Of a stretch of 64,000 nt of DNA, positions 4,449-59,073 are shown one piece after another. This DNA comes from Nitrosomonas sp. GTDB lineage: Bacteria > Pseudomonadota > Gammaproteobacteria > Burkholderiales > Nitrosomonadaceae. Location: NCBI GenBank assembly GCA_017879645.1, contig JAAEXZ010000001.1:3583-67582 (forward strand), read 5' to 3'. Under the pieces are notes generated by a model. It had not been told where the DNA came from. It did not search any database and worked only from the letters and a program-made list of their open reading frames with translations. The stretch's first letter is position 1. Each line of letters opens with the position of its first letter. Made by a program: the position numbers and the translations under genes.

Positions 4449-5969
4449 ATGTGTGGAATTCTTGGCATTGTTGCACAGTCGCCCGCTAATCAACTGCTCT
4501 ACGATGGTCTGCTCATGTTGCAGCATCGTGGACAAGATGCAAGTGGTATCGTGACGGCACAGGGCAATACCTTTCACATGCATAAAGGTTGTGGTTTGGT
4601 TCGCGATGTATTTCGTACCAGAGATATGCGGGAACTTTCAGGCAATATGGGGATTGGCCATGTCCGCTATCCTACAGCAGGTTCAGCCAGTTCGTCTGCC
4701 GAAGCGCAACCTTTTTATGTCAATTCACCATTTGGAATCGTATTGGGACACAATGGCAACCTGACCAATTCAGAACAGTTGAGCGAGGAGTTGTTCAAAG
4801 CTGATCTACGGCATGTCAACACCAATTCCGATTCGGAAGTATTGTTAAACGTGCTGGCCCATGAATTGCAGAAATGTGCACGTAACTATCGATTGGACCC
4901 GGAAACCATTTTTGCCGCCGTTTCCGGTGTGCACAGGCGTTGCAGAGGTGCGTATGCTGTAGTGGCCATGATAGCCGGTTACGGTTTATTGGCATTTCGC
5001 GATCCTTTCGGAATCAGGCCCTTGGTGTTTGGTTCATTGGAAAGCGAGCGGGGTGTGGAGTATTTGGTCGCTTCCGAGAGTGTGGCGCTGGATACCCTCG
5101 GTTTCAAAGTCATTCGTGATGTGGCGCCAGGAGAAGCCATTTTTATCGATGAGTCCGGAAATTTCTACAGCGAACAATGCGCCAGCCAATTTTCACTCCA
5201 TCCCTGTATTTTTGAATACGTTTACCTGGCTCGTCCGGATTCGGTGATTGATGGTATATCGGTGTATGAGACCCGACTCAATATGGGTGAGCATCTTGCA
5301 GAAAAAATCAAAAAAACGATGCGCCATATGGATATTGATGTCGTCATTCCTATTCCCGATTCGAGTCGACCCAGTGCATTGCAATTGGCCAACAAGCTGG
5401 GTGTTACCTTTCGCGAAGGGTTCGTGAAAAATCGTTATGTCGGCCGTACTTTTATCATGCCCGGACAGCAATTACGCCGAAAATCGGTTCGACAAAAACT
5501 GAATGCAATGAGTATCGAATTTCGTGGCAAGAATGTCATGCTCGTGGATGACTCTATCGTGCGTGGTACAACCAGCCGGGAGATTGTTCAGATGGCACGC
5601 GAGGCGGGGGCAAACAAAATCTATTTTGCATCGGCGGCACCGCCGGTTCGCTATCCGAATGTTTACGGTATCGACATGCCAACGCGGCACGAACTTATCG
5701 CAACGGATCGAAGCAACGAGGAAATTTGCCATGAAATTGGAGCGGATGAACTCGTATTTCAGGATCTGGACGCGCTGAGTCATGCAGTTGCAAAATTATC
5801 AACCTCACTCAAGCATTTTGAAACTTCCTGTTTTGATGGAAAATACATCACCGGTGATGTCACCCCGGATTATTTGCGTACACTGGAATTGCAACGTAGC
5901 TCCGGGGCAACCTCTGTTCGTTCAAGATCCAATATGCAACTGGATCTGAGTCTGGTTGTATCGGAGTGA
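4449..5969 (+). CDS. purF: Amidophosphoribosyltransferase
   Basis: MCGILGI N-terminal Cys nucleophile (Ntn glutamine amidotransferase) plus the PRPP-binding [14 protein letters not shown] motif. 506 aa. Confidence 0.95.
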
Positions 5970-12837: not shown

Positions 12838-12869
12838 AAAGGAAGGCACATTGTGCCGCACCTTCCTTT
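12838..12869 (-). terminator. Hairpin terminator downstream of the 12889..14043 gene
   Basis: Stem aaaggaagg / ccttccttt encloses an inner ggcac/gtgcc stem. On the minus strand it is followed by GCATTTTTGTT. It begins 20 nt after the stop codon. Confidence 0.55.
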
Positions 12870-12888: not shown

Positions 12889-14043
12889 TTATTCTACGCA
12901 GCTAGTGTAATTGGTTGGACATGCCGAAGACAGACCACCGTAAATATCGGTTTTCTGTTTTGGCGCTTTCATGACATTCAGAATACTGGGATAGAATTTT
13001 GGCGTACGGGTCCAAAACAGGTAATTGACCTTGAGATGATCTCGTGCAAATGCCATTAATTCTCCAATACTCGGTTGATGACCTGTTCCATCTACGCGCG
13101 TGTTTAAATAATTAGGTTCTTCAATCTGGATGGCCAGAGGCATCAACCCAGAACGTTCGGGATAATAGGTGTAAAGGCCCTTGGGTGAAGTTGCAGTTCC
13201 TGGAAAGTTAAGTCCGGGCTCATCCGGAAAAACATCGGGACCGCCCAGAGCGGATCCCATAGCTTGTAATTTATTGACATAGGTTTCCAGAATTGAACGG
13301 GGATAGTTGACAAACTGGAAGGTCATCGTGTTAGGAAAACGATAGCGCATGCGCTGGTTAAGTATCATCAGATTTCCATAGAATGCATCGGTTTGACTTG
13401 TGGTAAGCGGCTCGATCGGGGCGCCCATGGCTGTTTCTGTCAAGCCAAAGCCTTCGAAGTTGGGGTGAATATCAAAACGTTGGCCCATATTCCGGATTAA
13501 TGCTCTCAGACGACCCTGAATATTGCTATTCCACATTTTGATGTTATAGCCCTTGGTGACTTTGCTGCCATAAGCACCAATTGGAAATACGCCTCCCTCA
13601 TAAATGGGAGTGGTCTTGATGTAGTCCGGGACTATTGCTTTTGTGAGATTGAATGACTTGGTTTCTAACAGTACGATTAACTGCTTGTTTCTAGTTGCGA
13701 GTTCTGCAAGATGATTTTCGATGGCACTGAAATCATACACATCTTTTTGCGGCTCAAGCTCAGGCCAGGTGTAGCGAATAACCACTCCCCGAAATGCAGA
13801 AATTGCTAGGTCACTGTAAACTTGTTCCATATAGAGAGGATTGCTGTCACCTGGATTGACGAGCATGAGATAATGTCCGGGATGCCACTTTACATTACCA
13901 GCCGCACTAATTGCTTGTTTCGAACCCAAGGTGAAAAAGGTAGCGCAGAGAATTAAAAAAGAAGTCATCCAAAATAGACGCACACTTTTACCGGAATTTA
14001 GACTCAGAGTTCTAAATTTCGACTTGATATTTGCAGATTCCAT
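12889..14043 (-). CDS. Secreted uncharacterised protein, paralogue 1 of 3 (TIM-barrel glycoside-hydrolase-like)
   Basis: AAGGAA RBS 8 nt before the ATG and a signal peptide ending AISA/AG. Conserved blocks shared with 40988..42142 and 52610..53773: KWHPGHY, RG-V-x-RYxW-x-LE, LIVLLE-KSF, FEGFGL-ETA, NYLFWTR and the terminal CPxxYxSC. Confidence 0.85.
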   Translation of the reverse strand: MESANIKSKFRTLSLNSGKSVRLFWMTSFLILCATFFTLGSKQAISAAGNVKWHPGHYLMLVNPGDSNPLYMEQVYSDLAISAFRGVVIRYTWPELEPQKDVYDFSAIENHLAELATRNKQLIVLLETKSFNLTKAIVPDYIKTTPIYEGGVFPIGAYGSKVTKGYNIKMWNSNIQGRLRALIRNMGQRFDIHPNFEGFGLTETAMGAPIEPLTTSQTDAFYGNLMILNQRMRYRFPNTMTFQFVNYPRSILETYVNKLQAMGSALGGPDVFPDEPGLNFPGTATSPKGLYTYYPERSGLMPLAIQIEEPNYLNTRVDGTGHQPSIGELMAFARDHLKVNYLFWTRTPKFYPSILNVMKAPKQKTDIYGGLSSACPTNYTSCVE

Positions 14044-14417
14044 TAAAATTTCCTTTTAAGATATGGAAGCTGACTGAGAATAAGAAGAAGTGTTGCGTAA
14101 ATACTATTGCAGTTATGTTGCAATCTTCATTTCCTCGATGAAGAATTTTCCTTGGCAAGATAATTTTGAAATGCAATTCTGTAGCTGATTCCACTACTTA
14201 CACTATTCTCCGGCAGCCTCATTGATTTGATTCAATCGGTTTGTCAGAAGCAAACGTGGTTCTTGAAAAATTATTTTTTACAGAATTTATTGCTTCTTGA
14301 ATGCCTGTACGGTCAGCCAAAACTAGAACTTAAGGAAAGAAAAGAGAGCCATAAAGGCCTTATTTCTTAATTTTGATCCGATAAATAGATATAATTCTTG
14401 TACTTATATATAAAAGA

Positions 14418-14444
14418 TTTAATTAAATTTCGTTTAATTAAATT
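14418..14444. repeat. AT-only direct repeat tttaattaaatt x2 in a very AT-rich spacer
   Basis: tttaattaaatt occurs at 14418..14429 and again at 14433..14444. It lies in the 518-bp ORF-free region upstream of the 12889..14043 gene. Confidence 0.9.
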
Positions 14445-14477
14445 AAAATAAATTAAACAAAAGTGTTCAGGCCAGTG

Positions 14478-14508
14478 TTCACTAATGACCAATAAGGTCA
14501 TTAGTGAA
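14478..14508. repeat. Perfect 13-bp inverted repeat (ttcactaatgacc aataa ggtcattagtgaa)
   Basis: Read directly from the sequence. Arms are 14478..14490 and 14496..14508 with a 5-nt spacer. It lies 54 nt downstream of the stop of the 14562..14924 gene and has no U-tract. Confidence 0.9.
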
Positions 14509-14561
14509 GCAGGATAGTGTCGACTATGAATATGATGTCACTGTGTTGGGAATTGTAACCT

Positions 14562-14924
14562 TTAGCGCATGCGTGCTTCAACGAAAGTCGTTTCTCGATT
14601 GAAGTCGTCCCAGACATAATTGGGTTTTACGAAGGGTGTGGTGGGAATCAAGAAGGTAGCTATATCGAAAGCCCCACTCAAGGAGCGTCCCACTGCATTG
14701 GCAATGCCAGTCAGAAAACCAATGGTCATGCCATGAATGACGCCATCACGACTGCCAACGATGGAGATTGTTTTGGGGATTTCGACAAAACCAGTGACAG
14801 CATTTGCTAGGCCATTTCCGAGTTTCTCAACGACTTTATCCGGATATTGGCTGGAAAACGCAGGATTGGTCATGATCAGAGAGAAGATTGCGATAACTAG
14901 AAATCGTTGAAAGGTTATTTTCAT
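14562..14924 (-). CDS. Small secreted protein resembling the exosortase-system-associated TIGR04073 family
   Basis: 120 aa with signal peptide (IAIFSLIMTNPAFS/S). The pattern EKLGNGLANAVTGFVEIPK ... G-x-G ... GRSLSGAFDIATFLIP matches, from memory, the KLGRGLxNxxxGWxEIPK pattern of TIGR04073. AAGGAA RBS present. Confidence 0.55.
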   Translation of the reverse strand: MKITFQRFLVIAIFSLIMTNPAFSSQYPDKVVEKLGNGLANAVTGFVEIPKTISIVGSRDGVIHGMTIGFLTGIANAVGRSLSGAFDIATFLIPTTPFVKPNYVWDDFNRETTFVEARMR

Positions 14925-14984: not shown

Positions 14985-15497
14985 TTATTTCTTGGGTTGT
15001 TGTTTGAGTAGAGTCATGACTCTTTCAACATCCGATTCGATCTGACCCTCAGAAAGATTCCTGTTTTGCAGCTCCGCACGAACTCGATAGGCCATTTCCA
15101 GCAACAAGAGATCCATGGTGTTTTTTTCTCCTCGCTGTGATGCCTCCTGATACTCTGTCTGAAAGCGGTTGATAGCCGTCATCATTGCGTCTTTATTAAG
15201 ATTCAAGCTCAAAAGAGTCGATTCAAGTTCGTACTTTTGATTTCCTGATAGCACCGTTTGGGCAGATTGATTGCCACTATCAGATTGATAGGGTACATAT
15301 TTGTGCAATAGGACAGATGACATAATGAGTATAGTGCCTATTCCAACTGTCACGATTACAAAATAAAAAAGCTTCATTTCCTTACCCAGCAATTTGACTA
15401 CATTGATCCTGTCTACGCCAAGGCGAAGCTGCACGGCTATGCCGATGATAAATATCACGACACCCACTGCCATGATGGTAGGTACAATCGGATTCAC
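14985..15497 (-). CDS. Hypothetical membrane protein (2 TM plus coiled-coil tail)
   Basis: GTG start preceded by AAGGAGAA with 5-nt spacing. Two hydrophobic helices are followed by a charged helical C-terminus. It lies 60 nt upstream of, and is co-oriented with, 14562..14924. Confidence 0.6.
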   Translation of the reverse strand: MNPIVPTIMAVGVVIFIIGIAVQLRLGVDRINVVKLLGKEMKLFYFVIVTVGIGTILIMSSVLLHKYVPYQSDSGNQSAQTVLSGNQKYELESTLLSLNLNKDAMMTAINRFQTEYQEASQRGEKNTMDLLLLEMAYRVRAELQNRNLSEGQIESDVERVMTLLKQQPKK

Positions 15498-16976: not shown

Positions 16977-19181
16977 ATGACTACTTTGTTGACTGGATTG
17001 AATCCTGAGCAATTGCAGGCTATTACCCTACCGAATCAGTCGGCATTGATTCTGGCGGGTGCAGGAAGCGGCAAAACACGGGTTCTGACGACGCGTATTG
17101 CCCATCTGATTCAGTCCGGGCAAGCCAACCCACACAGTGTCCTGGCAGTGACCTTTACCAACAAGGCTGCAAAGGAAATGCTGGCACGCATCAGTGCAAT
17201 GCTTCCAATCAATCCACGTGGCATGTGGATCGGCACTTTTCACGGATTGTGTCATCGCATGCTGCGGGCGCATCATCAAGATGCCGGTCTTCCTCCGGCT
17301 TTCCAGATTCTGGATTCGGCTGATCAACTGGCCATGATCAAGCGGGTTCTGAAAGCATTATCAATAGATGATAAAAAATTTCCGCCCCGACAGGTGCAGT
17401 GGTTTATCAATAACGCCAAGGAAGCTGGGTTGCGTGCAGCACAAGTCGTCATGGAAGATGTTTTTTCACGGCGCATGCAGGAGTTGTACCAAGCCTATGA
17501 GCAACAGTGCCATAGAGAAGGCGTAGTTGATTTTGCCGAATTGCTGTTACGTTGTTACGAGTTGCTGAGTCGCAACGAGTTGCTTTGCCAGCATTATCGT
17601 GAGCGTTTTCACCACATTCTGGTAGATGAATTCCAGGATACGAATCCATTGCAGTACCGATGGCTGAAGCTTCTGGCTGGAATGGGGGCAGTGACTACGG
17701 CTACGGTGTTTGCGGTAGGTGATGATGACCAGAGCATCTATGCCTTCCGCGGTGCTTGCAGTGGCAATATGCGGGATTTCGAGCGCGATTTCGGTATTAC
17801 CAAAGTAATCAAGCTGGAGCAGAATTATCGTTCACACGGCAATATTCTGGATGCTGCCAACGCTTTGATTCAGAATAACTCCGAACGCCTCGGTAAGAAT
17901 CTCTGGACAGCGGAAGGTAAGGGTGAACCATTGCGGATTTATAATGCACCCAACGATTTTGATGAGGCCGCATTCATTGTCGGAGAGATCAAGGCCTTGC
18001 ATCATGACGGACTTGCTTTATCCGAAATCGCTCTGCTGTATCGATCCAATGCACAGTCCCGGGTGCTCGAGCATGGCCTGTTCAATGCGGGCTTACCTTA
18101 CCGTGTATACGGTGGCATGCGATTCTTCGATCGACAGGAAATCAAGCATGCGTTGGCCTATCTGCGCCTGATCGCCAATCCGGATGATGATGGTGCATTG
18201 TTGCGCGTGATCAACTTTCCTGCACGCGGTATCGGTCCGCGCAGCCTTGAACAGTTGACTGGTGTCGCCCAGGCGCAGAATAGCAGTCTGTGGATGGCTG
18301 CATTGGAGAAAAGCAGTGGCGATACCGAGGATCTGCTGCAGCAATCCAGCAAAACTATAAAAGGGATTGCCGGTTTTGTTCAGCTTATCACCCGGATGAG
18401 ACAGCAGTGTGCGGGACTCCCACTTCCGCAGGTGATTGAGCTGATGTTGACACAAAGCGAATTATTGATGCATTACGCCAAAGAACGTGAAAGTGCCGAG
18501 AGACTCGAGAATCTGCAGGAACTGGTTAATGCTGCCACACTGTTTGTGCACGAGGCTACGGATGATAGCTTGGCGGAGTTTCTTGCCCATGCATCGCTCG
18601 AGGCGGGTGAGCATCAGGCCGGTAGTGGTCAGGATGCACTGCAGTTGATGACGGTTCATGCGGCCAAGGGATTGGAATTTCATAGCGTTTTCTTAAGTGG
18701 TTTGGAAGAAGGGCTGTTTCCACACGAAAATAGCTTGAATGAAGCCAATGGTACGGCCGAGGAAAGACGTCTGATGTATGTGGCTATGACCCGGGCGCGC
18801 CGCCGCCTGTATTTGAGTTTTGCTCAGAGTCGGTTGCTGCATGGACAAACGCGCTACAACATACCATCGCGCTTTCTCGATGAGATTCCGGAAAACTGTG
18901 TGAAATGGCTGCAATCCACTTCACCAGCATGGGGAGGCGCATATCGAACGAATTCGGATAATCCGGCGTCATGGACAACGGGAGGGAGTGCATCTTACCC
19001 GCAGCATGGTGGAGCAAATGCCAAGTGGCGAGTCGGGCAGAATGTGATGCATGCAAAATTTGGCACTGGTGTGATCATCAATCGCGAAGGGAGTGGCAGT
19101 GAAGCGCGAGTGCAGGTCAATTTTGCCCAGTCAGGTACAAAATGGTTGCTGCTGGAGTATGCAAAATTGACGGAAATCTAG
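16977..19181 (+). CDS. uvrD: DNA helicase II (UvrD)
   Basis: SF1 helicase motifs (AGAGSGKT, VDEFQDTN, QNYRS, VHAAKGLEF, YVAMTRAR). The 734-aa length and C-terminal tail (HAKFGTGVII...VNF) favour UvrD over Rep. Confidence 0.88.
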   Translation: MTTLLTGLNPEQLQAITLPNQSALILAGAGSGKTRVLTTRIAHLIQSGQANPHSVLAVTFTNKAAKEMLARISAMLPINPRGMWIGTFHGLCHRMLRAHHQDAGLPPAFQILDSADQLAMIKRVLKALSIDDKKFPPRQVQWFINNAKEAGLRAAQVVMEDVFSRRMQELYQAYEQQCHREGVVDFAELLLRCYELLSRNELLCQHYRERFHHILVDEFQDTNPLQYRWLKLLAGMGAVTTATVFAVGDDDQSIYAFRGACSGNMRDFERDFGITKVIKLEQNYRSHGNILDAANALIQNNSERLGKNLWTAEGKGEPLRIYNAPNDFDEAAFIVGEIKALHHDGLALSEIALLYRSNAQSRVLEHGLFNAGLPYRVYGGMRFFDRQEIKHALAYLRLIANPDDDGALLRVINFPARGIGPRSLEQLTGVAQAQNSSLWMAALEKSSGDTEDLLQQSSKTIKGIAGFVQLITRMRQQCAGLPLPQVIELMLTQSELLMHYAKERESAERLENLQELVNAATLFVHEATDDSLAEFLAHASLEAGEHQAGSGQDALQLMTVHAAKGLEFHSVFLSGLEEGLFPHENSLNEANGTAEERRLMYVAMTRARRRLYLSFAQSRLLHGQTRYNIPSRFLDEIPENCVKWLQSTSPAWGGAYRTNSDNPASWTTGGSASYPQHGGANAKWRVGQNVMHAKFGTGVIINREGSGSEARVQVNFAQSGTKWLLLEYAKLTEI

Positions 19182-35388: not shown

Positions 35389-35832
35389 TTAAAGATTGTA
35401 GTTTTCTGCAGCATGCAGATGCGTGTGCAGCAAATCGTAAATCCGCTCTCCCATGAGCTGATGCGGATCGAAAGCGGGTGTTTTTTGGATTTGTTCAAAG
35501 GCCTGCCGGGTATCGGAATTCTCGCCAACATAAGCCATGAACCATTCGCTAAAGCGACGTGCTGGCGTGAGGTCAAAATCCAGAATGGCGACATTGGAGT
35601 GCCGGGGATCACACTGGATGCGTTCGAAGGTCTGTTGAATTTGATGGTGTGTGCCTTCCAGGACCTGAGCGAAGCAATTCCTGTTGAACATCAATGCGCC
35701 GGTGATATTGGCAGCGCGGTTGTTTTGCCGTGAGATGGCGAGAATTTGCTCGATTTCCTCACGAATTGTACTGTCGTTCCCGCAAATTTCGCTGTGACTC
35801 AGGTAAATCAATTGATACAAGTCATTTTTCAT
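35389..35832 (-). CDS. Stand-alone BLUF blue-light FAD photoreceptor
   Basis: LYQLIYLS (photoactive Tyr), NITGALMFNRNCFAQVLEG (photoactive Gln) and DPRH...FSEWFM (Trp/Met) all present. 147 aa with no output domain. Confidence 0.88.
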   Translation of the reverse strand: MKNDLYQLIYLSHSEICGNDSTIREEIEQILAISRQNNRAANITGALMFNRNCFAQVLEGTHHQIQQTFERIQCDPRHSNVAILDFDLTPARRFSEWFMAYVGENSDTRQAFEQIQKTPAFDPHQLMGERIYDLLHTHLHAAENYNL

Positions 35833-35930: not shown

Positions 35931-37622
35931 TCAAAAAAGCTCCAAAATTTTCTCAACCGGAACAGGTTTGCTGATCAGATATCCCTGTACTGCATTGCAT
36001 CCATTGTGCGCCAGGTAATCCAGCTGCTCTTCTGTTTCAACGCCCTCTGCCAAGGTATCCATATTCAACGCCTGACCCAGCGACAAGATGGCCTGTACCA
36101 GTGCGCGCGATTTTTCTGTCTGCAAACTGCGAATGAACGATTGATCTATTTTGATTTTTGAAAACGGAAAGCTGTTCAAATAATTGAGGGATGAGAAACC
36201 GGTACCGAAATCATCCATGGCGATCGTGACGCCCATATTCTGTATGTGCCAGAGCTGCTCGAGGGTTTTTTCAATATTGCGAATCAACAATCCTTCGGTG
36301 ATTTCCAGTTCCAGCCGTTGTGGATCCAGTCCGCTCATATGCAAGGCACGCTGAATGTGGTGTATCAGGCTGCCATCCTCAAATTGCAGGGGGGAAACAT
36401 TGATGGCGACCCTGATGTTTGCAGGCCAGCGCGCGGCATCGTGGCAAGCGGTCTGCAAGACCCATTTACCGATGGTATGAATTTCTCCCATGCTTTCCGC
36501 GAGTGGAATGAACTGCGCAGGAGAGATCCAGTCCTTGCCGGATTTCTGCCAGCGCAGCAAGGCTTCGCATCCGACAATTTTACGGTTGTGCATGTCAATC
36601 TGGGGTTGGTAGAACAGCTGAAATTCCTGTAGCAGGAGTGCACGACGCAAACCGACCTCCAGGTTGTGCTGCTCGAGTGCTCTCTGTTCCAATCCGGGTT
36701 CAAAAATGCAATGACTGCCCGGCGCCTGTTTCTTGGCTTCGGCCAGTGCCCACTCGGCATGCTGGATCAGATTCTTGGCTTCATCCGTACCCTGATGCAG
36801 AATAGCCATGCCGACACATGCGTTGGTGTTGACCTGGCGGCCGTTAATCAGGAAAGGACGTTGTAGTAATTCCAGCAAACGCTTGGCCAGGGTCACGACA
36901 CTGGCAGGCTGTGTCTGATTGGTTTGCAGCACGATGAATTTGTCTCCATCCAGTGCGGTAACAAAATCGTCTGTCCGCGAGACGCGGGCAATGCGCTGTC
37001 CTGCCAGCTTGAGTACCTGATCGCCGGTGTCATAGCCCAGTGTTTCATTGATTTTTTTGAATTGACTTAATCCAATGAGAATGACAGCCAGCGACCGATT
37101 TTCGGATTGATCGGTTTCCCAATCAGCAAGTATTTGGTGCAATTGCTGGCGATGACCCAATGTCGGCTGAGATTCATGGTTTTCAGTTTTGTCGGCATTG
37201 CGTTGAATCAGTAATGTATGATCAGAGGGCAGGGACTCAGCGATGATCAGGCGATGATCCTGATTTAATGCGGTCCATTGCAAACGGATCATGCTTTTAT
37301 CTTCAGGAATTGCGATTTCAAGTGTGCCGGCTTGAGGACAGGTTAATGTGTGTTGCCAGTGCATGACATCCACGGAACGGATGTGCTGCACATATTCAAA
37401 GATAGAGTGTCCCGGTTGAACCGGTTGTGTATGAAGCAGTCGGGTGAAAGCCGTATTGGCGGATAAAATTTTTCCCGATGTGTCAATATAAGCGATACCG
37501 AAACCGGTATGCAGTTGGGAAATATCCTGAAATTGGGGTATGGCGTTGTGCATGATCCTTTCCATTTTTATTGTATTGATGACAAGCGGCAGGACAGTGC
37601 GACAGTGGCAGAAATGCCGCAT
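35931..37622 (-). CDS. PAS / degenerate GGDEF / EAL protein (probable c-di-GMP phosphodiesterase)
   Basis: The GGDEF site reads LDGDKF instead of GGDEF. The EAL domain is canonical (GCEALLRW, DDFGTGFSSLNYL, KIDQSF). The true start is uncertain (M1, M20 or M24 of the ORF). Confidence 0.85.
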   Translation of the reverse strand: MRHFCHCRTVLPLVINTIKMERIMHNAIPQFQDISQLHTGFGIAYIDTSGKILSANTAFTRLLHTQPVQPGHSIFEYVQHIRSVDVMHWQHTLTCPQAGTLEIAIPEDKSMIRLQWTALNQDHRLIIAESLPSDHTLLIQRNADKTENHESQPTLGHRQQLHQILADWETDQSENRSLAVILIGLSQFKKINETLGYDTGDQVLKLAGQRIARVSRTDDFVTALDGDKFIVLQTNQTQPASVVTLAKRLLELLQRPFLINGRQVNTNACVGMAILHQGTDEAKNLIQHAEWALAEAKKQAPGSHCIFEPGLEQRALEQHNLEVGLRRALLLQEFQLFYQPQIDMHNRKIVGCEALLRWQKSGKDWISPAQFIPLAESMGEIHTIGKWVLQTACHDAARWPANIRVAINVSPLQFEDGSLIHHIQRALHMSGLDPQRLELEITEGLLIRNIEKTLEQLWHIQNMGVTIAMDDFGTGFSSLNYLNSFPFSKIKIDQSFIRSLQTEKSRALVQAILSLGQALNMDTLAEGVETEEQLDYLAHNGCNAVQGYLISKPVPVEKILELF

Positions 37623-40987: not shown

Positions 40988-42142
40988 TCATTCGACACAA
41001 GAATGATAAACCCTGGGGCATACGGTACTTAGGCCGCCAGTCGGATCGTCTGCTGGAAGGCTTCTCAGTGTTTGCAGCACATTGGGAAAATATCCGGGTG
41101 CCCGAGTCCAGAAAATGTAGTTGGCTTTCAGATTATCTCGGGCATATGCCAACAGTTCCTCGACTGTAGGTGTCTTGCCGGATTTATCAGGACGGGTATT
41201 GACATAATTTGTTTGCATGACCGAGGGTGTCAGAGGGACTATTCCGGAAAGTTCTGAATAATGATGATAGACCCCCTTGGGAGCATTTGTCCTATTGACA
41301 GTCAATCCAGGATCGTCGGGGAATGTATCTGGGCCACCTAAGCCCGTTCCGATTTCCCGCAAACGGTTGACAAATGATTTCAGCATCGGCCTGGGATAAT
41401 TCGTAAACTGATAGGTCATGGTGTTCGGGAAATGTGTTCTTAATTCCTGGTTAATGAGTAACATGCCGGAATAAAAACTGTTTTCCTGATTCTTGGATAA
41501 TTCAATCATAGGCTTGCCCATGGCGGTTTCAGTCAATCCTATCCCCTCAAAATAGGGGTGCGTATTGAATCGCTTACCCAATTCGGTGATTAGGGCAACG
41601 AGCCGATTTTGTAGTTGTACATTCCAAAGTTTCAGGTTATAGCCCCTGATCTTTTGTGTCCCGTAACTGCTGAATGGAAAAGCGCCTTCCTCGTATTTTT
41701 TGTCTTTCAAATAATCGGGTATGAATCGGGTCGATGCGTCGAAGGACTTGATTTGCAATAATACGATCAATCTTTTCTTGCGCTCGGACAACTCTCTCAA
41801 TCGCTGCTCGATCTGTGAAAAATCATATGCTCCTTCACTGGGTTCCAGGTCTATCCATTCATAGCGGATTTGCACGCCACGTAACGCGGGCGTATTTTCC
41901 AGTTCCCGATAAACTTGAGACAGATATTGCGGATTGTTTTTTCCACCCATCAATGTGTAGTAATGGCCGGGATGCCATTTTACCGCTCCGGCTTCGCTGT
42001 TACGGGATGCGTGCGCTGAAAGGCTCGGTGTGGTGAGGAAAATAACCAGGAATGTAAAAGTCAGAATGGGTTTGAATTGAGCAAACCGCATGAAGTCCCG
42101 GCTATTGAAGCGTGTTTGTAACATACTAAAAATCTTCATCAT
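40988..42142 (-). CDS. Secreted uncharacterised protein, paralogue 2 of 3
   Basis: AAGGAGG RBS and signal peptide ending LSAHA/S. Same conserved blocks as 12889..14043 (VKWHPGHY, RGVQIRYEWIDLEP, LIVLLQIKSF, FEGIGLTETAMG, NYIFWTR, terminal CPRVYHSCVE). Confidence 0.85.
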   Translation of the reverse strand: MMKIFSMLQTRFNSRDFMRFAQFKPILTFTFLVIFLTTPSLSAHASRNSEAGAVKWHPGHYYTLMGGKNNPQYLSQVYRELENTPALRGVQIRYEWIDLEPSEGAYDFSQIEQRLRELSERKKRLIVLLQIKSFDASTRFIPDYLKDKKYEEGAFPFSSYGTQKIRGYNLKLWNVQLQNRLVALITELGKRFNTHPYFEGIGLTETAMGKPMIELSKNQENSFYSGMLLINQELRTHFPNTMTYQFTNYPRPMLKSFVNRLREIGTGLGGPDTFPDDPGLTVNRTNAPKGVYHHYSELSGIVPLTPSVMQTNYVNTRPDKSGKTPTVEELLAYARDNLKANYIFWTRAPGYFPNVLQTLRSLPADDPTGGLSTVCPRVYHSCVE

Positions 42143-42536
42143 TAGGTGTTCCTCCTTGAAGCCAATTGAAGTGCTCTGGATTCAATCAGTGCAGTGGTGT
42201 TGAAATGAACAGTGTCAGGGAATCAATATCAAATCGATGGGATGGGAAGGTGCTGCAAGTAACAAATGGGTCGCAAATTAACTGATCGACAGCATTGCTG
42301 TTCAGGCATCGTGCAATATTCAGACACGATTGTAAAGGAATATCGCATGCTGCAGATTATATTCATTCTGGAATACAATAGCCTAATCAATGAAATACCT
42401 GCTCTTTCTGGCAAGAATCCAGCAGAGCAAGTGTCGGGTTTCAGGCTGACGAGTAATTGAAAACAAGCTGGGTTGAAACGATTTGCATCGTTTTATTTTC
42501 TAATAGAATATCTGAATTCTAACTTAAGGGTGTGAC

Positions 42537-43343
42537 ATGACCCAGTTTCGTAAACCGGCTGTAGCAGGCCTGTTTTATTCCGCGGAAAACAAACAGCTTG
42601 TAAAAGACGTGCAAGTCTTGCTGGCCAGGGCAAAACACCAGACCTGCTTGCCCAAGGCATTGATCGTGCCGCATGCCGGCTATGTTTATTCGGGTAGTGT
42701 AGCGGCAGCCGCTTATGCCACCCTGAATTCGATTGCAGGCCGCATCAGACGTGTGGTGCTACTGGGTCCGGCACATCGTTTTGCATTCAGCGGTGTGGCG
42801 TTGCCTGACGCGGATGCTTTTACCACACCACTGGGAGAAATCAAGTTGGATGTGGGATGGATCCGGAAAAATCAACATCTGTCCGGACTACTTGTTTCCA
42901 GGGCAGCGCATGAATTCGAGCATGCCCTGGAAGTACAGTTGCCATTCTTGCAATGTGTATTGAACGATTTTGTTTTGTTACCTTTGGTCGTTGGTATGAC
43001 GACTGTCGAAACCGTTGCCGAGATTCTTGAAAATGCTTGGGGTGGAGAAGAGACATTGATCGTGGTCAGTTCCGATCTCTCGCATTACCTGCCTTACGAA
43101 GTGGCACAACAGGTGGATCAGCAGACTATTCGGGGCATTTTGCAACTCCAGCTTCTGGCAGACCGTGATCAGGCTTGCGGTAGTATGCCGATCAATGGAT
43201 TGATCATGGCAGCCCGGAAGCATCATCTGACACCACAATTGCTGGATTCGTGCAATTCAGGTGATACGGCTGGCGAACGAACACAAGTGGTCGGGTATGC
43301 TTCGATTGCTTTCACTGATATCAAGGTTAAACATGCTTCCTGA
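42537..43343 (+). CDS. AmmeMemoRadiSam system protein B (Memo-like)
   Basis: N-terminus RKPAVAGLFYS, metal-ligand context VPHAGYVYSG, and SSDLSHY. 268 aa. Confidence 0.85.
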   Translation: MTQFRKPAVAGLFYSAENKQLVKDVQVLLARAKHQTCLPKALIVPHAGYVYSGSVAAAAYATLNSIAGRIRRVVLLGPAHRFAFSGVALPDADAFTTPLGEIKLDVGWIRKNQHLSGLLVSRAAHEFEHALEVQLPFLQCVLNDFVLLPLVVGMTTVETVAEILENAWGGEETLIVVSSDLSHYLPYEVAQQVDQQTIRGILQLQLLADRDQACGSMPINGLIMAARKHHLTPQLLDSCNSGDTAGERTQVVGYASIAFTDIKVKHAS

Positions 43344-43902
43344 GTCCATGACGCAAGGCAATATCGTATTGAGAATTGCCCGTGCGGCGATCGCGCAGGC
43401 ACTCCATGTGCACTTTGAATCCATTGATTCTGAAGCGAATCAACCTTGGTTGTTGCAGCCTGGAGCCTCGTTTGTCACTTTGTTGCAGCATGGTCAACTG
43501 CGAGGCTGTATCGGTTCATTGCAACCTGATTTACCCTTGCTGGAAGATATTCGCAAAAATGCGGTATCGGCCGCACTGCACGATTCCCGTTTTTTACCGT
43601 TGACTCAGCGTGAATTCAGTTCCATCGCAATCGAGGTATCCGTACTTTCTGATCTTGATCGCATCGATTTCAGAGATGAAGCGGATGCGATTGCACAAAT
43701 GCGTCCGGGAATGGACGGTATCGTTTTGGAGTATGAAAACTGTCGTAGCACATTCTTGCCGCAAGTATGGGATAGCATTCCCGATCCCCAGCAATTTCTG
43801 GAAAATCTGAAAATCAAGGCCCAGTTACCCGGAGATTTCTGGGCAGCAGGAATCCGGTTATTTCGTTATACGGTCAACTCGTGGCACGAAACTAAATCTT
43901 AG
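43333..43902 (+). CDS. AmmeMemoRadiSam system protein A (AMMECR1 domain)
   Basis: AMMECR1 core LRGCIGS plus DSRF and EVSVLS blocks. Start set at ATG 43333, overlapping the stop of protein B by 11 nt. Confidence 0.82.
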   Translation: MLPESMTQGNIVLRIARAAIAQALHVHFESIDSEANQPWLLQPGASFVTLLQHGQLRGCIGSLQPDLPLLEDIRKNAVSAALHDSRFLPLTQREFSSIAIEVSVLSDLDRIDFRDEADAIAQMRPGMDGIVLEYENCRSTFLPQVWDSIPDPQQFLENLKIKAQLPGDFWAAGIRLFRYTVNSWHETKS

Positions 43903-43911
43903 GAGGTTGAT

Positions 43912-45003
43912 ATGGATGAGCCGATTACACCTGACCAGCAGTTTCCTGCGCGTTACTGGCATGTTCTGCAAGATGGCAGGATTCAATGTGATCTCTGCCC
44001 CCGGGACTGCAAGTTGCATGACGGGCAGCGAGGAGCCTGTTTTGTGCGTGCGCGTGCCGGTGATTCGATGGTGCTGACCACCTATGGGCGGTCTTCGGGG
44101 TTTTGTATCGATCCTATCGAAAAGAAACCGTTGTATCACTTCTATCCAGGTAGCAGCGTTCTGTCCTTTGGCACGGCAGGCTGCAATCTTGCCTGCAAGT
44201 TTTGTCAAAACTGGGATATATCGAAATCGCGGAGCTTCGATAAACTGATGGATCGGGCAAGTCCCGAGGCAATTGCGCAGTGTGCTGTGCAACATGACTG
44301 TCGAAGTGTTGCCTTTACTTACAACGATCCGGTCATTTTTGCAGAATATGCGATCGATGTTGCCGATGCCTGTCATGCCAGAGGAATTAAGACGGTTGCA
44401 GTAACGGCTGGATACATCAATGCGCAGGCACGAAAGGATTTCTTTGCCGGAATGGATGCAGCCAATGTCGATCTCAAGGGTTTTACGGAAGCGTTTTATC
44501 TGAAACAAACCGGATCACACCTTCAGCCAGTACTCGAGACACTGCAATATTTGAAACACGAAACCGAGGTCTGGCTGGAACTGACCACACTGTTGATACC
44601 AGGCTTGAATGATTCGATCGAAGAATTGGAAAAGATGTGCAGGTGGATACATGATGCGCTGGGAACCGGCGTGCCATTACATTTCACCGCATTTCATCCG
44701 GATTACAAGCTCGATGATATCCCGTCGACACCACTTGAAACCTTGATTCAAGCACGCAAGATTGCACTCGATTGTGGATTGCAGTACGTCTACACCGGAA
44801 ATGTTCATCATCGCGAGGGGGATACAACGCTCTGCCATACCTGTGGCAACATCGCTATTGAGCGTGACTGGTACGAAATCAAACGTTACGAGTTGACGAC
44901 AGAAGGCTGCTGCAAGCATTGCAACGCTTCAATACCAGGCTGCTTCGGGGCATTCTCAGGGCAATTTGGGAGACAGAGAATGCCTGTCAGAATCGGTATT
45001 TAG
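43912..45003 (+). CDS. AmmeMemoRadiSam system radical SAM enzyme
   Basis: CNLACKFCQNW 4Fe-4S/SAM motif. AGGAGG RBS overlaps the stop of protein A. The C-terminal CHTCG...CCKHC four-Cys ribbon is present. 363 aa. Confidence 0.88.
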   Translation: MDEPITPDQQFPARYWHVLQDGRIQCDLCPRDCKLHDGQRGACFVRARAGDSMVLTTYGRSSGFCIDPIEKKPLYHFYPGSSVLSFGTAGCNLACKFCQNWDISKSRSFDKLMDRASPEAIAQCAVQHDCRSVAFTYNDPVIFAEYAIDVADACHARGIKTVAVTAGYINAQARKDFFAGMDAANVDLKGFTEAFYLKQTGSHLQPVLETLQYLKHETEVWLELTTLLIPGLNDSIEELEKMCRWIHDALGTGVPLHFTAFHPDYKLDDIPSTPLETLIQARKIALDCGLQYVYTGNVHHREGDTTLCHTCGNIAIERDWYEIKRYELTTEGCCKHCNASIPGCFGAFSGQFGRQRMPVRIGI

Positions 45004-49349: not shown

Positions 49350-52160
49350 ATGAAGCTTGAAACGAAATTTATGCGTAGCCGGGTTGCCCGGCGCATGCTA
49401 CTTTTCTTTGTTATCTCTGCATTCATTCCAGTATTGTTCTTGGCTGTCCTGTCTTATTGGGAATCTAACCAGCAATTGACCAGACAAGCGCAAACCCGTC
49501 TGGATGCGGTCAGCAAGATTTATCAAACTTCGATTTATGACCGGTTGCTGCTACTGGATCGGGCGTTGATCGAAGTTTCGCAACAACTGACTGAAAACGA
49601 ATTGCCCAATGACATGCAGGTGCAACTACAGGATAAATTTCGTCATCTCGCACTGCAATTTTCTGATGGCAAATTCCTGACCCTGCTAGGGCAAGATATG
49701 CCCGTCACGTCACTGAGTTCCGCGGCATTGCAGCATTTGCAGCACGGCCAACCCTTGCTCGTCACGCAGCGAATGGATTCCGATATCCGAATATTTGTTT
49801 TGCGTGCTCAATCGTTATCCACAGATCAGTCTGTCATCATCCGTGCAGAAATCATTCCGGAATTTTTATGGGGAAATCCTGAAGATTTTGTACTGGATAA
49901 TAATTTATGTATATTCAATGAGCTAAACATTAATCTGTTTTGTACCAACGTGCCAATTTATCCGGTGCTAGAGGATCTACAGGAAAAGACCCGCGCAACC
50001 AAAGGCAATCTGTATTGGCAGCATCAAGGCGAAAACTTTATCGCCAGTTATCATGAAATTTTCTTGCAGGCAAAGTTTATGACGCCGCGCTGGGTCGTGC
50101 TGGCATCGCAACCGGAAATGGAAGCGCTGCATGCGCTGAAGCAATTTAATACCATTTTCTGGGGCAGCGTAATTTTGTCCATTTTACTCATTCTGTTGTT
50201 GAGCATGACGCAGATTCGTCGTGTCCTCGTGCCGCTCGAACAATTGATCGATGGTACTCGCCGTTTGAGTGGCCGCGATTTCACTGCCAAAGTGTCTGTC
50301 TCCAGCACTGATGAATTCGGTGAACTGGCTTCTTCATTCAATGCGATGAGCGACAGGTTGGGTTATCAGTTTGAAACACTGGAGGCGCTTGCAAAGATTG
50401 ACCGTGATATTTTGTCATCGCTCGATATGGACAGTATCGCGACAGATGTTTTGAGTCACCTCAAGAAATTGACGGGCGCGGAGTTTGGCAGTATTTCTGT
50501 CATGAATGCCAAATCTTCCTTGTCAATGCATACTGTTGTCAGTAATGGTTCGGCGGACAAACCGACTGTTACGACGGATGTCTTGCTGGAGAACACACAT
50601 GCTCTGCTGATACAGCATCAACGGGGTATCTGGGTAGATCATCAGCTTATCAAACAACAGATTAAAGAATATACAACAGCAGTCAGATATTTCTTTTTGT
50701 TTCCATTGAACTGGAAAGAGCAGATGGTGGGGTTTATCGCCTTGGGATGCCAGAACAGACAACATTGGGTAGAGGATGAGAACCAGTTGATTCAGGATTA
50801 TGCCGATCGGATTGCGGTGGCACTTTTTACTCGAAACCGGGAAGAAATGCTTATTCGTCAGGCGAGAATCGATGCGTTGACAGGTTTGCCCAACCGGTTT
50901 TTGTTCGTTGAACAACTGCAAAAGGAGATTGCCAAAGCGCATCGTACAACGGCAAGGTTTGCGGTGTTTTATATCGATCTGGATCGCTTCAAGAAAATCA
51001 ATGATAGTCTCGGTCATTCGATCGGGGACAAGTTACTATGCGATGCGGGTCGGCGTTTGCAACACTGCGTACGCGAGAGCGATATGGTTGCCCGGCTGGG
51101 TGGCGATGAGTTTGCCGTTCTGGTCAATCCAGTTGAGCATGAACACATCGCTACCCGGATAGCTGACGATATCGTTCAGTCATTGACCAAACCTTTTTTT
51201 CTCGATGGTGATGACAATGTGGTTGGGGCTAGTATCGGCATAGCCCTGTTTCCCAGTGACGGTGAAAGCGTCGAAGAACTGATGCGCAATTCGGATATTG
51301 CCATGTACCGTGCCAAAGCAAACAGTGGCAATCGCTATATCTTTTTTGAAGAAAGCATGAATTCGGAAGTAATCAGGCGTGCCAATACTGAAAGAGAATT
51401 AAGGAAAGCCATTGCCGAAAAACAATTCGTCTTGCACTATCAGCCGCAGATCGATCCCAAAACAAATCTACCTCGGGGTGTCGAAACCCTGGTGCGCTGG
51501 AATCATCCCCGGTTGGGATTGATTTCTCCGGCTTCATTTATCCCGATTGCAGAAGAAGCCGGACTGATCGTCGATATCGGATATTTTATTCTGCACGAAG
51601 CTTGTGCGCAGTATCGTGCGTGGTGTGATCAGGGAATCGTATTGGATTATGTCGCTGTTAATGTTTCAGTCGAGCAATTCAGTCATGCTCATTTTGTGCA
51701 ATCGGTTGAGGCAGCGCTTAGAAACAATGACATGCCGGCGCATTGCCTGGAGCTGGAAATAACGGAAAGTGTACTGATGAACGATACAACGGTTGTACTC
51801 GAGGTTTTGCATCGATTGCGGCAAATGGGTATACAACTTTCGATTGATGATTTTGGAACCGGGTATTCATCCTTATCCTATCTCGAGCAACTGCCTTTTG
51901 ACACGCTGAAGATCGACATATCGTTTGTCAATAAAATTCAGGATGATCGCAGTGGTGGTACGATTGCGGCCACGATAGCTGCCATGGCGCATACATTGGG
52001 TAAGAAAGTCGTTGCAGAAGGTGTCGAAACCCAGGCACAACTGGACTTTTTGCGAAATCATGACTGTGAATTGATACAGGGTTTTTATTTCAGCCGGCCA
52101 TTGCCAGCCTGCGAGCTCGCCGCTTTCGTGAGTTCGAAGCGTGTTTGTCACAAGGACTGA
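49350..52160 (+). CDS. Periplasmic-sensor / HAMP / GAF-like / GGDEF / EAL signalling protein
   Basis: TM1, an extracytoplasmic domain of about 230 aa, TM2, HAMP (DEFGELASSFNAMSDRL), intact RLGGDEFAVL, and an EAL domain with ETLVRW, DDFGTGYSSLSYL and KIDISF. 936 aa. It starts 12 nt after the pseudopilin stop. Confidence 0.88.
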   Translation: MKLETKFMRSRVARRMLLFFVISAFIPVLFLAVLSYWESNQQLTRQAQTRLDAVSKIYQTSIYDRLLLLDRALIEVSQQLTENELPNDMQVQLQDKFRHLALQFSDGKFLTLLGQDMPVTSLSSAALQHLQHGQPLLVTQRMDSDIRIFVLRAQSLSTDQSVIIRAEIIPEFLWGNPEDFVLDNNLCIFNELNINLFCTNVPIYPVLEDLQEKTRATKGNLYWQHQGENFIASYHEIFLQAKFMTPRWVVLASQPEMEALHALKQFNTIFWGSVILSILLILLLSMTQIRRVLVPLEQLIDGTRRLSGRDFTAKVSVSSTDEFGELASSFNAMSDRLGYQFETLEALAKIDRDILSSLDMDSIATDVLSHLKKLTGAEFGSISVMNAKSSLSMHTVVSNGSADKPTVTTDVLLENTHALLIQHQRGIWVDHQLIKQQIKEYTTAVRYFFLFPLNWKEQMVGFIALGCQNRQHWVEDENQLIQDYADRIAVALFTRNREEMLIRQARIDALTGLPNRFLFVEQLQKEIAKAHRTTARFAVFYIDLDRFKKINDSLGHSIGDKLLCDAGRRLQHCVRESDMVARLGGDEFAVLVNPVEHEHIATRIADDIVQSLTKPFFLDGDDNVVGASIGIALFPSDGESVEELMRNSDIAMYRAKANSGNRYIFFEESMNSEVIRRANTERELRKAIAEKQFVLHYQPQIDPKTNLPRGVETLVRWNHPRLGLISPASFIPIAEEAGLIVDIGYFILHEACAQYRAWCDQGIVLDYVAVNVSVEQFSHAHFVQSVEAALRNNDMPAHCLELEITESVLMNDTTVVLEVLHRLRQMGIQLSIDDFGTGYSSLSYLEQLPFDTLKIDISFVNKIQDDRSGGTIAATIAAMAHTLGKKVVAEGVETQAQLDFLRNHDCELIQGFYFSRPLPACELAAFVSSKRVCHKD

Positions 52161-52609
52161 GAAGACGGATATCGATCCGGATTGAATCAAGTTTTCTCAA
52201 CCCAATCATTGGTTCATTATTGATTATTTCTGCAATCAATTGTCGATAACTGTCGTTATCAGATTGCTTGTTACACTAGCTCTCATGATTAAATCTTTGT
52301 GATAATTTGAAGCTGCTCGCAAAAGTCGAATCGATTTTACATAAAGATATTGTGAAGTTATTTGTTGCTGTTTCATTTTTGTTGCGATATGATTGGCGCC
52401 GGAAACAGCGCTTATTACCGTCAAAATGACTGATGAGCATCCCGAGGAAGTTCTGAATAAATATCTACGCAAGCGAGTCACTGTGTATTAGGTAGTGCTC
52501 GATTTTTTTTATCCTATCCATTTTGTTTCCCAGGCACCGTTAGCCTTTTGCGTCATCTCACTCTGCGATTTATTCGGGATTCCTTTTCTATATTAAAGGA
52601 GCCTTTCAT

Positions 52610-58645: not shown

Positions 58646-59073
58646 TTTTTTGACCTTGTGCACTTTCGATTCAGCGCATGTTTCTGCTGAAAGGGGAAAA
58701 ATGCGTGATGGATTCATTACGGAACTCCTGTTTTATGAAATGAATATTGATAAACCCGCATTGCAACCTAAGAAAGTACTCGCAATTGCAAACAGAAGTA
58801 TCTTTTAAAGGGTATGGGCTTGTTTTCTTGAATAATCTAGGGCGCTATTATATGCGATAACGTTTTTTGTCAAAGCTAAGAATGAACAGTTTTGTGGATA
58901 CTAATCCGGCGTTGTGATGAGTGCCCTAATTTGTTGTATATAAAAGTATTAAATATCAGCCATATAAATATCGGTATTGATCAGGATCAAAAAGTATGAA
59001 TTGTTGTAAATAAGTGACACTGGATTGGAAGTGTGGAGGATGAGTTAAACTGAAAATTGATCCAGTCAGAATA

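Follow-up and report, generated by a model that had tools for sequence, protein, structure and literature searches.

Three diverged genes in a Nitrosomonas genome encode predicted exported, glycosidase-like barrel proteins of a large, unclassified family

What are three diverged copies of one secreted-looking protein doing, scattered among unrelated genes, in a single stretch of a Nitrosomonas genome? The stretch analyzed here as a whole, called the window below, comprises 64,000 nucleotides of Nitrosomonas sp. (GenBank assembly GCA_017879645.1, contig JAAEXZ010000001.1, forward-strand positions 3,583 to 67,582). A first-pass annotation, made from the letters alone, had singled out three genes in it as an uncharacterized secreted protein family. 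We present here a computational analysis of these genes and their relatives, which are divergent, single-domain members of the glycosidase triosephosphate isomerase (TIM)-barrel superfamily without a close solved or named relative. We consider it moderately probable that they are exported carbohydrate-active proteins that use a noncanonical mechanism on the matrix polysaccharide of their own cell; the export, the substrate, the catalysis, and the mechanism are what we infer. The genes, in window numbering, are as follows.

Copy 1: 12889-14043, minus strand, 384 amino acids (aa); predicted exported (beta/alpha)8 barrel protein resembling glycoside hydrolase (GH) families GH35 and GH42, Glu-308 type, from the open reading frame (ORF) and an AlphaFold2 model.
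Copy 2: 40988-42142, minus strand, 384 aa; same family as copy 1, with Met309 (copy 1 position 308) at the clan GH-A nucleophile position.
Copy 3: 52610-53773, plus strand, 387 aa; same family as copy 1, Glu type (Glu311).

All three ORFs stand exactly as first read, at 384 to 387 aa. The estimate that about half of their residues agree was borne out, since copy 1 shares 47% identity with copy 2 and likewise with copy 3; at least 130 columns of the three-copy alignment are invariant. The shared blocks listed earlier (KWHPGHY, RGVxxRYxWxxLE, LIxLLxxKSF, FEGxGLxETAxG, GYNxKxWN, FPxTM, DxPGL, and NYxFWTR) are all present, and each gene has a ribosome-binding site of its own, with the Shine-Dalgarno (SD) sequences AAGGA, AAGGAGG, and AAGGAG lying 6 to 9 nt 5′ of the three ATGs. 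A family hidden Markov model (HMM) run against all six-frame ORFs finds exactly 3 members in the window.

To which known proteins are they related? The annotation had seen a resemblance to clan GH-A glycosidases and had placed the family in no named group. No Pfam or NCBIfam model reached its threshold in scans of the three window proteins and 92 diverse members. Below threshold, the window proteins scored 15.9, 15.0, and 11.2 bits with Pfam GH42 (PF02449; cut-off, 21) and 25.8, 23.6, and 17.9 bits with NCBIfam GH35 (NF051902; cut-off, 500), and the Pfam GH35 model did not match them. PF02449 was the sole Pfam family to score, matching 24 of the 92 diverse members (best E = 3e-6) from beta2 to just short of the beta4 Glu. 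A family profile run against all PDB sequences retrieved the GH35 entries 7kmn and 8fa4 (E = 5e-6) and GH42 structures (2e-3); the match is confined to a segment of about 60 residues, beta2-alpha2-beta3, with the motif W-x-x-L-E-P-x-x-G-x-Y-D-F, and three profiles differing in breadth and span did not extend the alignment with GH35/GH42 to beta4 or beta7.

The predicted structure agrees with this placement. The AlphaFold2 model of copy 1, built with 50 homologues, has a predicted local distance difference test score (pLDDT) of 89.9 and a predicted template modeling score (pTM) of 0.85, and in it a helix corresponding to the signal peptide precedes eight beta/alpha units. Foldseek searches of the PDB with the model returned glycosidase TIM barrels by the hundred, led by GH14, GH35, and GH42, at best template modeling (TM) scores of about 0.5, none above about 0.56, and root mean square deviations (rmsd) of 6 to 8 Å. 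Among viral models (BFVD), the best matches were a DUF4832 protein, GH5, and GH20. The names given to homologues at NCBI are "glycoside hydrolase," "beta-galactosidase," and "hypothetical protein." The earlier proposal had been left to hang on two points, and on these no confident match to a characterized family was found and the predicted fold is a (beta/alpha)8 barrel whose sole detectable relatives are GH35 and GH42. Descent from the GH35/GH42 (clan GH-A) lineage is the best explanation of these results. The window proteins are not filed as GH35 or GH42 because they fall short of the HMM thresholds and because, in the family, the Asn of the Asn-Glu dyad is mostly missing and the nucleophile is not conserved.

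The last two of these concern the active site. The 144 domains in which conservation was determined came from 50%-identity clusters, and the values were mapped onto the strands of the AlphaFold2 model. A nitrifier set of 100 proteins was compared at 21 sampled positions. The residues most relevant to catalysis are listed in copy 1 numbering, with percentages for the 144 domains.

Glu203 codon: 13435-13437, minus strand (copy 1); 41528-41530 (copy 2); 53234-53236 (copy 3); proposed general acid/base.
Residue 308 codon: 13120-13122, minus strand (copy 1, Glu); 41216-41218 (copy 2, Met); 53540-53542 (copy 3, Glu).
Asn246: after beta5, 99% conserved.
Glu97: the Glu of WxxLE, after beta2, 98% conserved.
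Trp93: after beta2, 96% conserved.
Asp270: after beta6, 86% conserved, with Asn in another 13%.
Trp344: in beta8, 90% conserved.

Glu203 lies two residues past beta4 (196-201); 143 of the 144 diverse domains retain it, as do 100 of 100 nitrifier proteins. It is proposed as the putative clan GH-A acid/base, an equivalence based on its position in the model. It is preceded by Thr, Ile, Gln, or Pro, with Asn at that place in 13 of the 144 domains only. Residue 308, directly past beta7 (303-307), occupies the position where, to our knowledge, every clan GH-A enzyme carries its nucleophile Glu. Across the family this residue is Gln in 91 domains (63%), Met in 18 (12%), and Glu in 14 (10%) of the 144; of the 100 nitrifier proteins, 51 have Glu here and 48 have Met. 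The paired carboxylates that the annotation expected in the barrel are not conserved: only the beta4 Glu is universal, and with Gln, Met, or Glu at the beta7 position the textbook GH-A retaining mechanism cannot be assumed. Elsewhere the site is strict. At 15 of the 21 positions compared, the nitrifier proteins show no variation at all (among them Arg90, Glu97, Glu197, Glu203, Gln243, Asn246, Asp270, Asn311, Trp344, Arg346, and both Cys), and the remaining likely-site positions are at least 94% conserved. All other site residues are invariant in the Met-308 paralogues, and the coupling between residues 202 and 308 is weak.

Where the proteins act depends on their export signals, assigned by eye, and on a C-terminal Cys pair.

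Copy 1 export signal: 13903-14043, minus strand, about residues 1-47; basic n-region, hydrophobic core, AIS/AA site.
Copy 2 signal peptide: 42008-42142, minus strand, about residues 1-45; AHA/S site.
Copy 3 signal peptide: 52610-52768, plus strand, about residues 1-53; GHA/A site.
Cys375...Cys382 pair of copy 1 (GGLxxxCPxxYxSC): 12898-12921, minus strand; invariant, probable disulfide.

The basic N-region and cleavable-looking signal peptide of the first description are found in all three proteins, with AxA-type sites, and orthologues repeat the layout (AYA/A and SHA/S sites, likewise by eye). In the AlphaFold2 model of copy 1, a low-confidence helix (18-41) stands ahead of the barrel. The Cys pair is present in 50 of 50 and 100 of 100 aligned sequences, and Cys375 and Cys382 probably form a disulfide, which fits export. 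Taken together, the signal-like N-termini, the Cys pair, and T9SS (type IX secretion system) sorting tails on relatives suggest that the window proteins are exported. Neither a PEP-CTERM motif nor a C-terminal transmembrane helix was found in them; the C-termini read GGLxxxCPxxYxSC[VT][EN], and Pfam PF07589 gave no match.

What the proteins may act on is indicated by their relatives. Distant members are fused to Laminin_G_3, PA14, CBM4_9, CBM35, fn3, He_PIG, cadherin-like, and CARDB domains, and Bacteroidota homologues bear T9SS sorting tails; partners of this kind are typical of secreted carbohydrate-active enzymes. One to three family genes lie within the exosortase exopolysaccharide (EPS) locus of 12 Nitrosomonas genomes (13 loci in all), and that locus encodes EpsH, EpsI (DUF3485), three sulfotransferases, a carbohydrate esterase family 4 (CE4) polysaccharide deacetylase, GT4 glycosyltransferases, a Wzx-type flippase, and WecG; in one of these loci, L044, the family gene is codirectional with the EPS genes. 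The EpsH/PEP-CTERM system was defined as EPS associated, with N. europaea among the founding genomes (Haft et al. 2006, PMC1569441). Neighbor clustering across 79 loci showed that the recurrent neighbors are those of orthologous synteny and of the EPS locus. No sugar transporter or catabolic gene recurs as a neighbor in the window and the fetched loci. A paper on the sulfated EPS Synechan describes no homologous hydrolase.

A second association is regulatory. An element of about 90 nt upstream of paralogues is a cyclic di-GMP (c-di-GMP)-I riboswitch (Rfam RF01051), scoring 76 to 87 bits (gathering score, 35). A profile run over the whole of the fetched DNA found 25 aptamers, and 25 of 25 lie within 700 nt 5′ of a family gene and on its strand. 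They precede 21 of the 105 family genes in the fetched loci, 17 with one aptamer and 4 with two in tandem, and their hosts are other Nitrosomonas genomes and a Stenomitos metagenome-assembled genome (MAG). Tandem c-di-GMP-I riboswitches are common in bacteria (PMC9481103).

Tandem aptamers (RF01051), locus L039: 5502-5588 and 5743-5829.
Tandem aptamers (RF01051), locus L058: 1879-1965 and 2122-2208.
Tandem aptamers (RF01051), locus L059: 5483-5569 and 5726-5812.
Tandem aptamers (RF01051), locus L061: 1922-2008 and 2165-2251.
Single aptamers (RF01051): loci L026, L028, L035, L047, L048, L049, L052, L056, L070, L071, L081, and L082.

The riboswitch is found in half of the EPS-locus copies versus 15% of the other family genes, and 17 of the 21 riboswitch-controlled genes encode the Met-308 type. 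Because the Met-308 paralogues make up most of the riboswitch-controlled genes and keep their other site residues, we take them to be functional proteins; and since Met-type proteins are maintained and regulated, the beta7 carboxylate is evidently not essential to the core function of the family. At 12 or more loci, a sigma-54-like sequence of the −24/−12 type (TGGCAC-N5-TGCT) lies about 25 nt before the aptamer (for example, L082 at about 5575-5590 and L070 at about 5670-5685), and sigma-54 sites have been described upstream of PEP-CTERM genes (Haft et al. 2006, PMC1569441). On the 3′ side of the aptamers is a conserved hairpin in which an anti-SD, UUCCGUCCUU, pairs with the SD, AAGGAGGAA. 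Minimum free energy folds of the riboswitch leaders always sequester the SD in this hairpin, and folding does not decide between ON and OFF control. Our literature searches found no paper tying c-di-GMP riboswitches to Nitrosomonas or to this family. These riboswitches, together with the EPS loci and the carbohydrate-binding and T9SS partner domains of relatives, point toward an extracellular polymer as the target, as the annotation had suggested.

The window copies form a riboswitch-less branch of the family outside the EPS loci. RF01051 has no match in the window at the gathering threshold or at E ≤ 5, nor in the copy 3 leader searched alone, and no sigma-54-like site was detected upstream of the three window genes. 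The sequence ACGCAAGCGAGTCACTG in the copy 3 leader was considered as an aptamer core and rejected, since that search of the leader gave no RF01051 match. Separately, a possible 7-bp hairpin seen by eye at 52570-52600 (plus strand; UUCCUUU-N8-AAAGGAG) may mask the SD of copy 3; it resembles the expression platform of the riboswitch-controlled paralogues, and the aptamer is absent.

How widespread and how old is the family? A profile search of public proteins yielded 2,314 clusters (50% identity) at E ≤ 1e-3; in 373 of them the match is at E ≤ 1e-30. For genomic matches, the best 80 of 222 were kept, and the copy numbers per genome are lower bounds: at least 9 in one Nitrosomonas MAG, at least 7 in another, and at least 5 in several, often in tandem arrays of two or three. 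Expansion is strong in oligotropha/ureae-type Nitrosomonas, and a Nitrosomonas of this type is the best explanation for the host of the window. Nitrospira members share about 50% identity and include one on a closed Nitrospira chromosome with a conserved neighborhood of its own; further members occur in a Stenomitos cyanobacterium and a Saprospiraceae MAG, and the wider family has members in Bacteroidota, cyanobacteria, and Parcubacteria and on Vibrio and Enterobacterales plasmids. Judged by these sequences, the lineage-specific expansion that the annotation proposed describes Nitrosomonas well and the family itself poorly.

Each window copy has an 89 to 91% identical orthologue in the same arrangement in Nitrosomonas MAG GRE_AOB_2, the closest genome among the matches listed. 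Orthologues of copy 1 at 89% and 85% identity occupy the same motAB-adjacent position, and in strain Nm166 a 53% orthologue likewise adjoins motAB, on the upstream side. Copy 2 has a 91% orthologue (L036) and orthologues of about 60% identity in seven Nitrosomonas loci that keep the Memo/AMMECR1/radical-SAM neighbors, while the 89% orthologue of copy 3 (L065) lies downstream of the same GGDEF-EAL gene. These conserved syntenic positions indicate old paralogues fixed in place, not recent duplicates.

At two other loci, transposase genes adjoin family genes. In L026 (3981-5279, 5884-7152, 8643-9911), which adjoins EPS/sulfotransferase genes, two family genes have identical 21-position active-site signatures except at residue 309, and their leaders are identical over about 260 nt, covering the sigma-54-like site, the riboswitch, and the downstream region. 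A DDE transposase gene just 5′ of the first of them suggests a very recent duplication. Distant homologues (25 to 31% identity, named "hypothetical protein") occur on large plasmids, on Enterobacter bugandensis pEC105227L (L084, 8896-9855) and on Ewingella, Serratia, and Xenorhabdus plasmids (H3, H6, and H7, respectively); the pEC105227L gene is flanked by a Tn3-family transposase/resolvase and another transposase, in the manner of a transposon passenger.

If the proteins do process the cell's own matrix, they would work in the periplasm or outside the cell, where they would cut, trim, or rearrange the matrix EPS. The polymer would be the one associated with the exosortase/PEP-CTERM system, which the genes of that locus predict to be sulfated and partly N-deacetylated, and the many paralogues would cover different linkages or regulatory states. 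Glu203 past beta4 would serve as the general acid/base, and the −1 subsite would be lined by Glu97, Asn246, Asp270, Arg90, and Trp344. The canonical beta7 nucleophile would be dispensable; the second catalytic function would fall to Asp270 or Glu97 (as base or nucleophile) or to the substrate, for example, to a 2-acetamido group. Substrate assistance would agree with the missing Asn before the acid/base. Both Nitrosomonas and Nitrospira live chemolithoautotrophically, in microcolonies embedded in a matrix. Because the hosts are autotrophic and matrix embedded, a secreted glycosidase is more likely to serve matrix handling than feeding, and the EPS-locus and c-di-GMP associations of the paralogues point to matrix building or dispersal. 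More tentatively, the family may constitute a new GH family, or a carbohydrate-active family with another reaction, that arose from the GH35/GH42 barrel, does without the beta7 nucleophile of the clan, and relies on substrate assistance or a different base; the nitrifier paralogues might then be a c-di-GMP-controlled toolkit that builds, trims, or dissolves a sulfated microcolony matrix, with the Glu-308 and Met-308 forms differing in reaction.

Several results count against matrix processing by these proteins. Their similarity to characterized enzymes covers about 60 residues by sequence and is weak by structure (TM about 0.5). The classical nucleophile is absent in most members, which might not be hydrolases, and the candidate catalytic residues were assigned by strand position and not by the geometry of the model coordinates. 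No conserved operon partner emerged from the neighbor clustering, in which no neighbor gene was present in more than 11 of the 79 loci. The window copies have no EPS locus, riboswitch, or sigma-54 site, so that their functional context is borrowed from paralogues just 45 to 55% identical to them, and full-text searches of the literature gave no experimental data or paper on any family member.

The loss of the nucleophile leads most directly to another explanation, that these are noncatalytic, lectin-like matrix proteins whose barrels bind EPS and cross-link or organize the microcolony matrix. The chi-lectins and other GH18-derived pseudoglycosidases provide the precedent. Gln or Met occupies the nucleophile position in about 75% of the family, and 48 of the 100 nitrifier proteins have Met there. 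The very large family with its tandem arrays would suit such a role, as would the single-gene units with long upstream regions and, in some cases, sigma-54-like promoters, which recall the PEP-CTERM matrix proteins (PMC1569441); adhesins, too, are often under c-di-GMP riboswitches. We nevertheless judge a lectin-like role unlikely. Glu203 is conserved at 99% across very diverse members, along with Glu97, Asn246, and Asp270, a strictness more typical of catalysis; half of the nitrifier paralogues retain Glu at 308; and repeats, anchoring motifs, and PEP-CTERM are absent. Catalysis might instead be directed at another envelope glycan in the periplasm (peptidoglycan, lipopolysaccharide/O-antigen, osmoregulated glucans, or protein-linked glycans), given that copy 1 adjoins motAB, as in Nm166, and that an L,D-transpeptidase gene and lpxK lie within a few kilobases of copy 3. 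These envelope and motility neighbors are, however, not in operons with family genes, the exosortase EPS locus is the sole polysaccharide context that recurs across genomes, and the T9SS tails and carbohydrate-binding module fusions of relatives point outside the cell, which makes an envelope substrate improbable.

Least probable of all, to the point of being a long shot, are ordinary secreted beta-galactosidases or exoglycosidases that scavenge external glycans. The name beta-galactosidase or glycoside hydrolase borne by some NCBI homologues would favor them, as would the fact that the sole significant similarity is to GH35 and GH42 beta-galactosidases. Yet the best scores were 25.8 bits against the NCBIfam cut-off of 500 and 15.9 against the Pfam cut-off of 21, the nucleophile and the Asn-Glu dyad are both unconserved, and the mature protein, at about 340 aa, has none of the additional domains found in GH35 and GH42 enzymes, whose chains run to 511 to 712 aa. 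Recurrent sugar transporter or catabolic neighbors were not found either, and the hosts are chemolithoautotrophs.

Comparison with known systems places the proteins more precisely. With GH35 enzymes (Bgl35A/GanA/XAC1772 type; 4d1i, 8fa4, and 7kmn) they share the (beta/alpha)8 barrel, a beta4-end Glu where GH-A enzymes have the acid/base, and the beta2-alpha2-beta3 profile similarity with its W-x-x-[LIV]-E-P-x-x-G-x-[YF]-D-F motif and downstream P-x-[YW]. They differ in aligning over about 60 residues at a TM of about 0.5, in having no Asn before the beta4 Glu and no conserved beta7 Glu, and in being single-domain proteins, with about 340 mature residues versus 510 to 550 aa in GH35. The GH42 enzymes (PF02449; 5e9a, 8ibr, 4ucf, and 3tts) are linked to the family by the subthreshold Pfam score and are among the Foldseek matches; they are cytoplasmic, whereas the family proteins are predicted to be exported, lack the trimerization and C-terminal domains, and do not conserve the nucleophile. 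GH14 beta-amylases (1vep and 5wqu) gave the best Foldseek E value and TM (2e-9; TMq, 0.50 to 0.56), but at 8 to 12% identity, an rmsd of 7 to 8 Å, and no sequence-level match, the likeness is one of barrel fold only.

Glycosidases of EPS loci include PslG/GH39, BcsZ/GH8, PelA/GH166, the PgaB C-domain/GH153, Sph3/GH135, and Ega3/GH114, several of which have atypical sets of catalytic residues. The family resembles them by role, as its paralogues in 12 Nitrosomonas genomes are predicted exported proteins encoded beside glycosyltransferases, a flippase, and a CE4 deacetylase. It differs in having no detectable sequence relationship to them, in window copies that lie outside EPS loci, and in being multicopy, whereas EPS-locus glycosidases are usually single copy per locus. 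Likeness to the c-di-GMP-I (GEMM-I, RF01051) regulon is similarly divided: 21 of 105 relatives have one or two full-length aptamers, and the window has no match at any threshold used.

The window genes themselves have long, AT-rich leaders (32 to 41% GC versus 47.5% for the whole window) and were described by the annotation as monocistronic. The noncoding features are as follows.

Copy 1 upstream region: 14044-14561, minus strand; 518 nt, AT rich, 32% GC.
Copy 2 upstream region: 42143-42536, minus strand; 394 nt, common to the divergent Memo gene.
Copy 3 upstream region: 52161-52609, plus strand; 449 nt, noncoding.
Terminator-like hairpin of copy 1: 12838-12869, minus strand; 13 pairs and then GCATTTTTGT, 20 nt past the copy 1 stop codon.

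For copy 1, the 518-nt gap and the 13-bp terminator agree with a monocistronic unit. The case is weaker for copy 2, which is divergent from its upstream neighbor and followed by a weak, 7-bp hairpin. Copy 3 has a 449-nt upstream gap, and no terminator-like site was seen between it and the next gene, 161 nt away. The near-palindrome GATT[GC]AATC has 4 matches in the window, 3 of them in the upstream regions of family genes, which make up 2% of the window: 14229-14237, 42179-42187, and 52180-52188, at −186, −37, and −430, respectively; the fourth is at 16996-17004. Orthologues of copies 1 and 3 keep it in their leaders, and the orthologue of copy 2 does not. Other genomes show no enrichment of it upstream of their family genes, and it is an unproven candidate for a lineage-specific operator or a chance occurrence.

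The neighbors of the window copies are unrelated, housekeeping, or signaling genes: motAB, phosphoribulokinase (PRK), uvrD, LMW-PTP, ADH, Memo/AMMECR1/radical SAM, two GGDEF-EAL proteins, DUF4126, and lpxK. Upstream of copy 1 are two small ORFs without a Pfam match (14562-14924 and 14985-15497, both minus strand; 120 and 170 aa), whose positions are kept in the 85% relative (L001, L003). Divergent from copy 2 lies a complete AmmeMemoRadiSam trio (42537-45003, plus strand), comprising Memo (42537-43343), AMMECR1 (43261-43902), and radical SAM (43912-45003) genes. The GGDEF-EAL genes, which are c-di-GMP turnover genes close to riboswitch-less family members, encode a protein (35931-37622, minus strand) adjoined by a BLUF blue-light sensor (35389-35832, minus strand) and a larger HAMP-GAF-GGDEF-EAL protein (49350-52160, plus strand) immediately 5′ of copy 3. 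Three kilobases from copy 3, an Alginate_exp (AlgE-like) outer-membrane porin gene (56960-58717, minus strand; E = 8e-114) may encode a polysaccharide export channel; other alginate genes are absent nearby.

Rather than a new kind of system, we see here a large, mechanistically odd, and unstudied family with an unclassified glycosidase-like barrel and a noncanonical catalytic set, among the largest paralogous sets of predicted secreted proteins in nitrifier genomes, for which we found no Pfam or NCBIfam model, solved structure, or literature. As a GH-A-derived barrel whose acid/base is invariant and whose nucleophile is naturally Gln, Met, or Glu, it offers a natural experiment on mechanism. 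Nitrosomonas and Nitrospira are nitrifiers of soils, waters, and wastewater plants, and how they make and remodel their matrix is poorly understood. Through relatives of the window proteins, the family is linked to the exosortase EPS locus and to c-di-GMP riboswitches, both of them hallmarks of biofilm control, and enzymes able to dissolve nitrifier aggregates, or to strengthen them, would be useful engineering tools.

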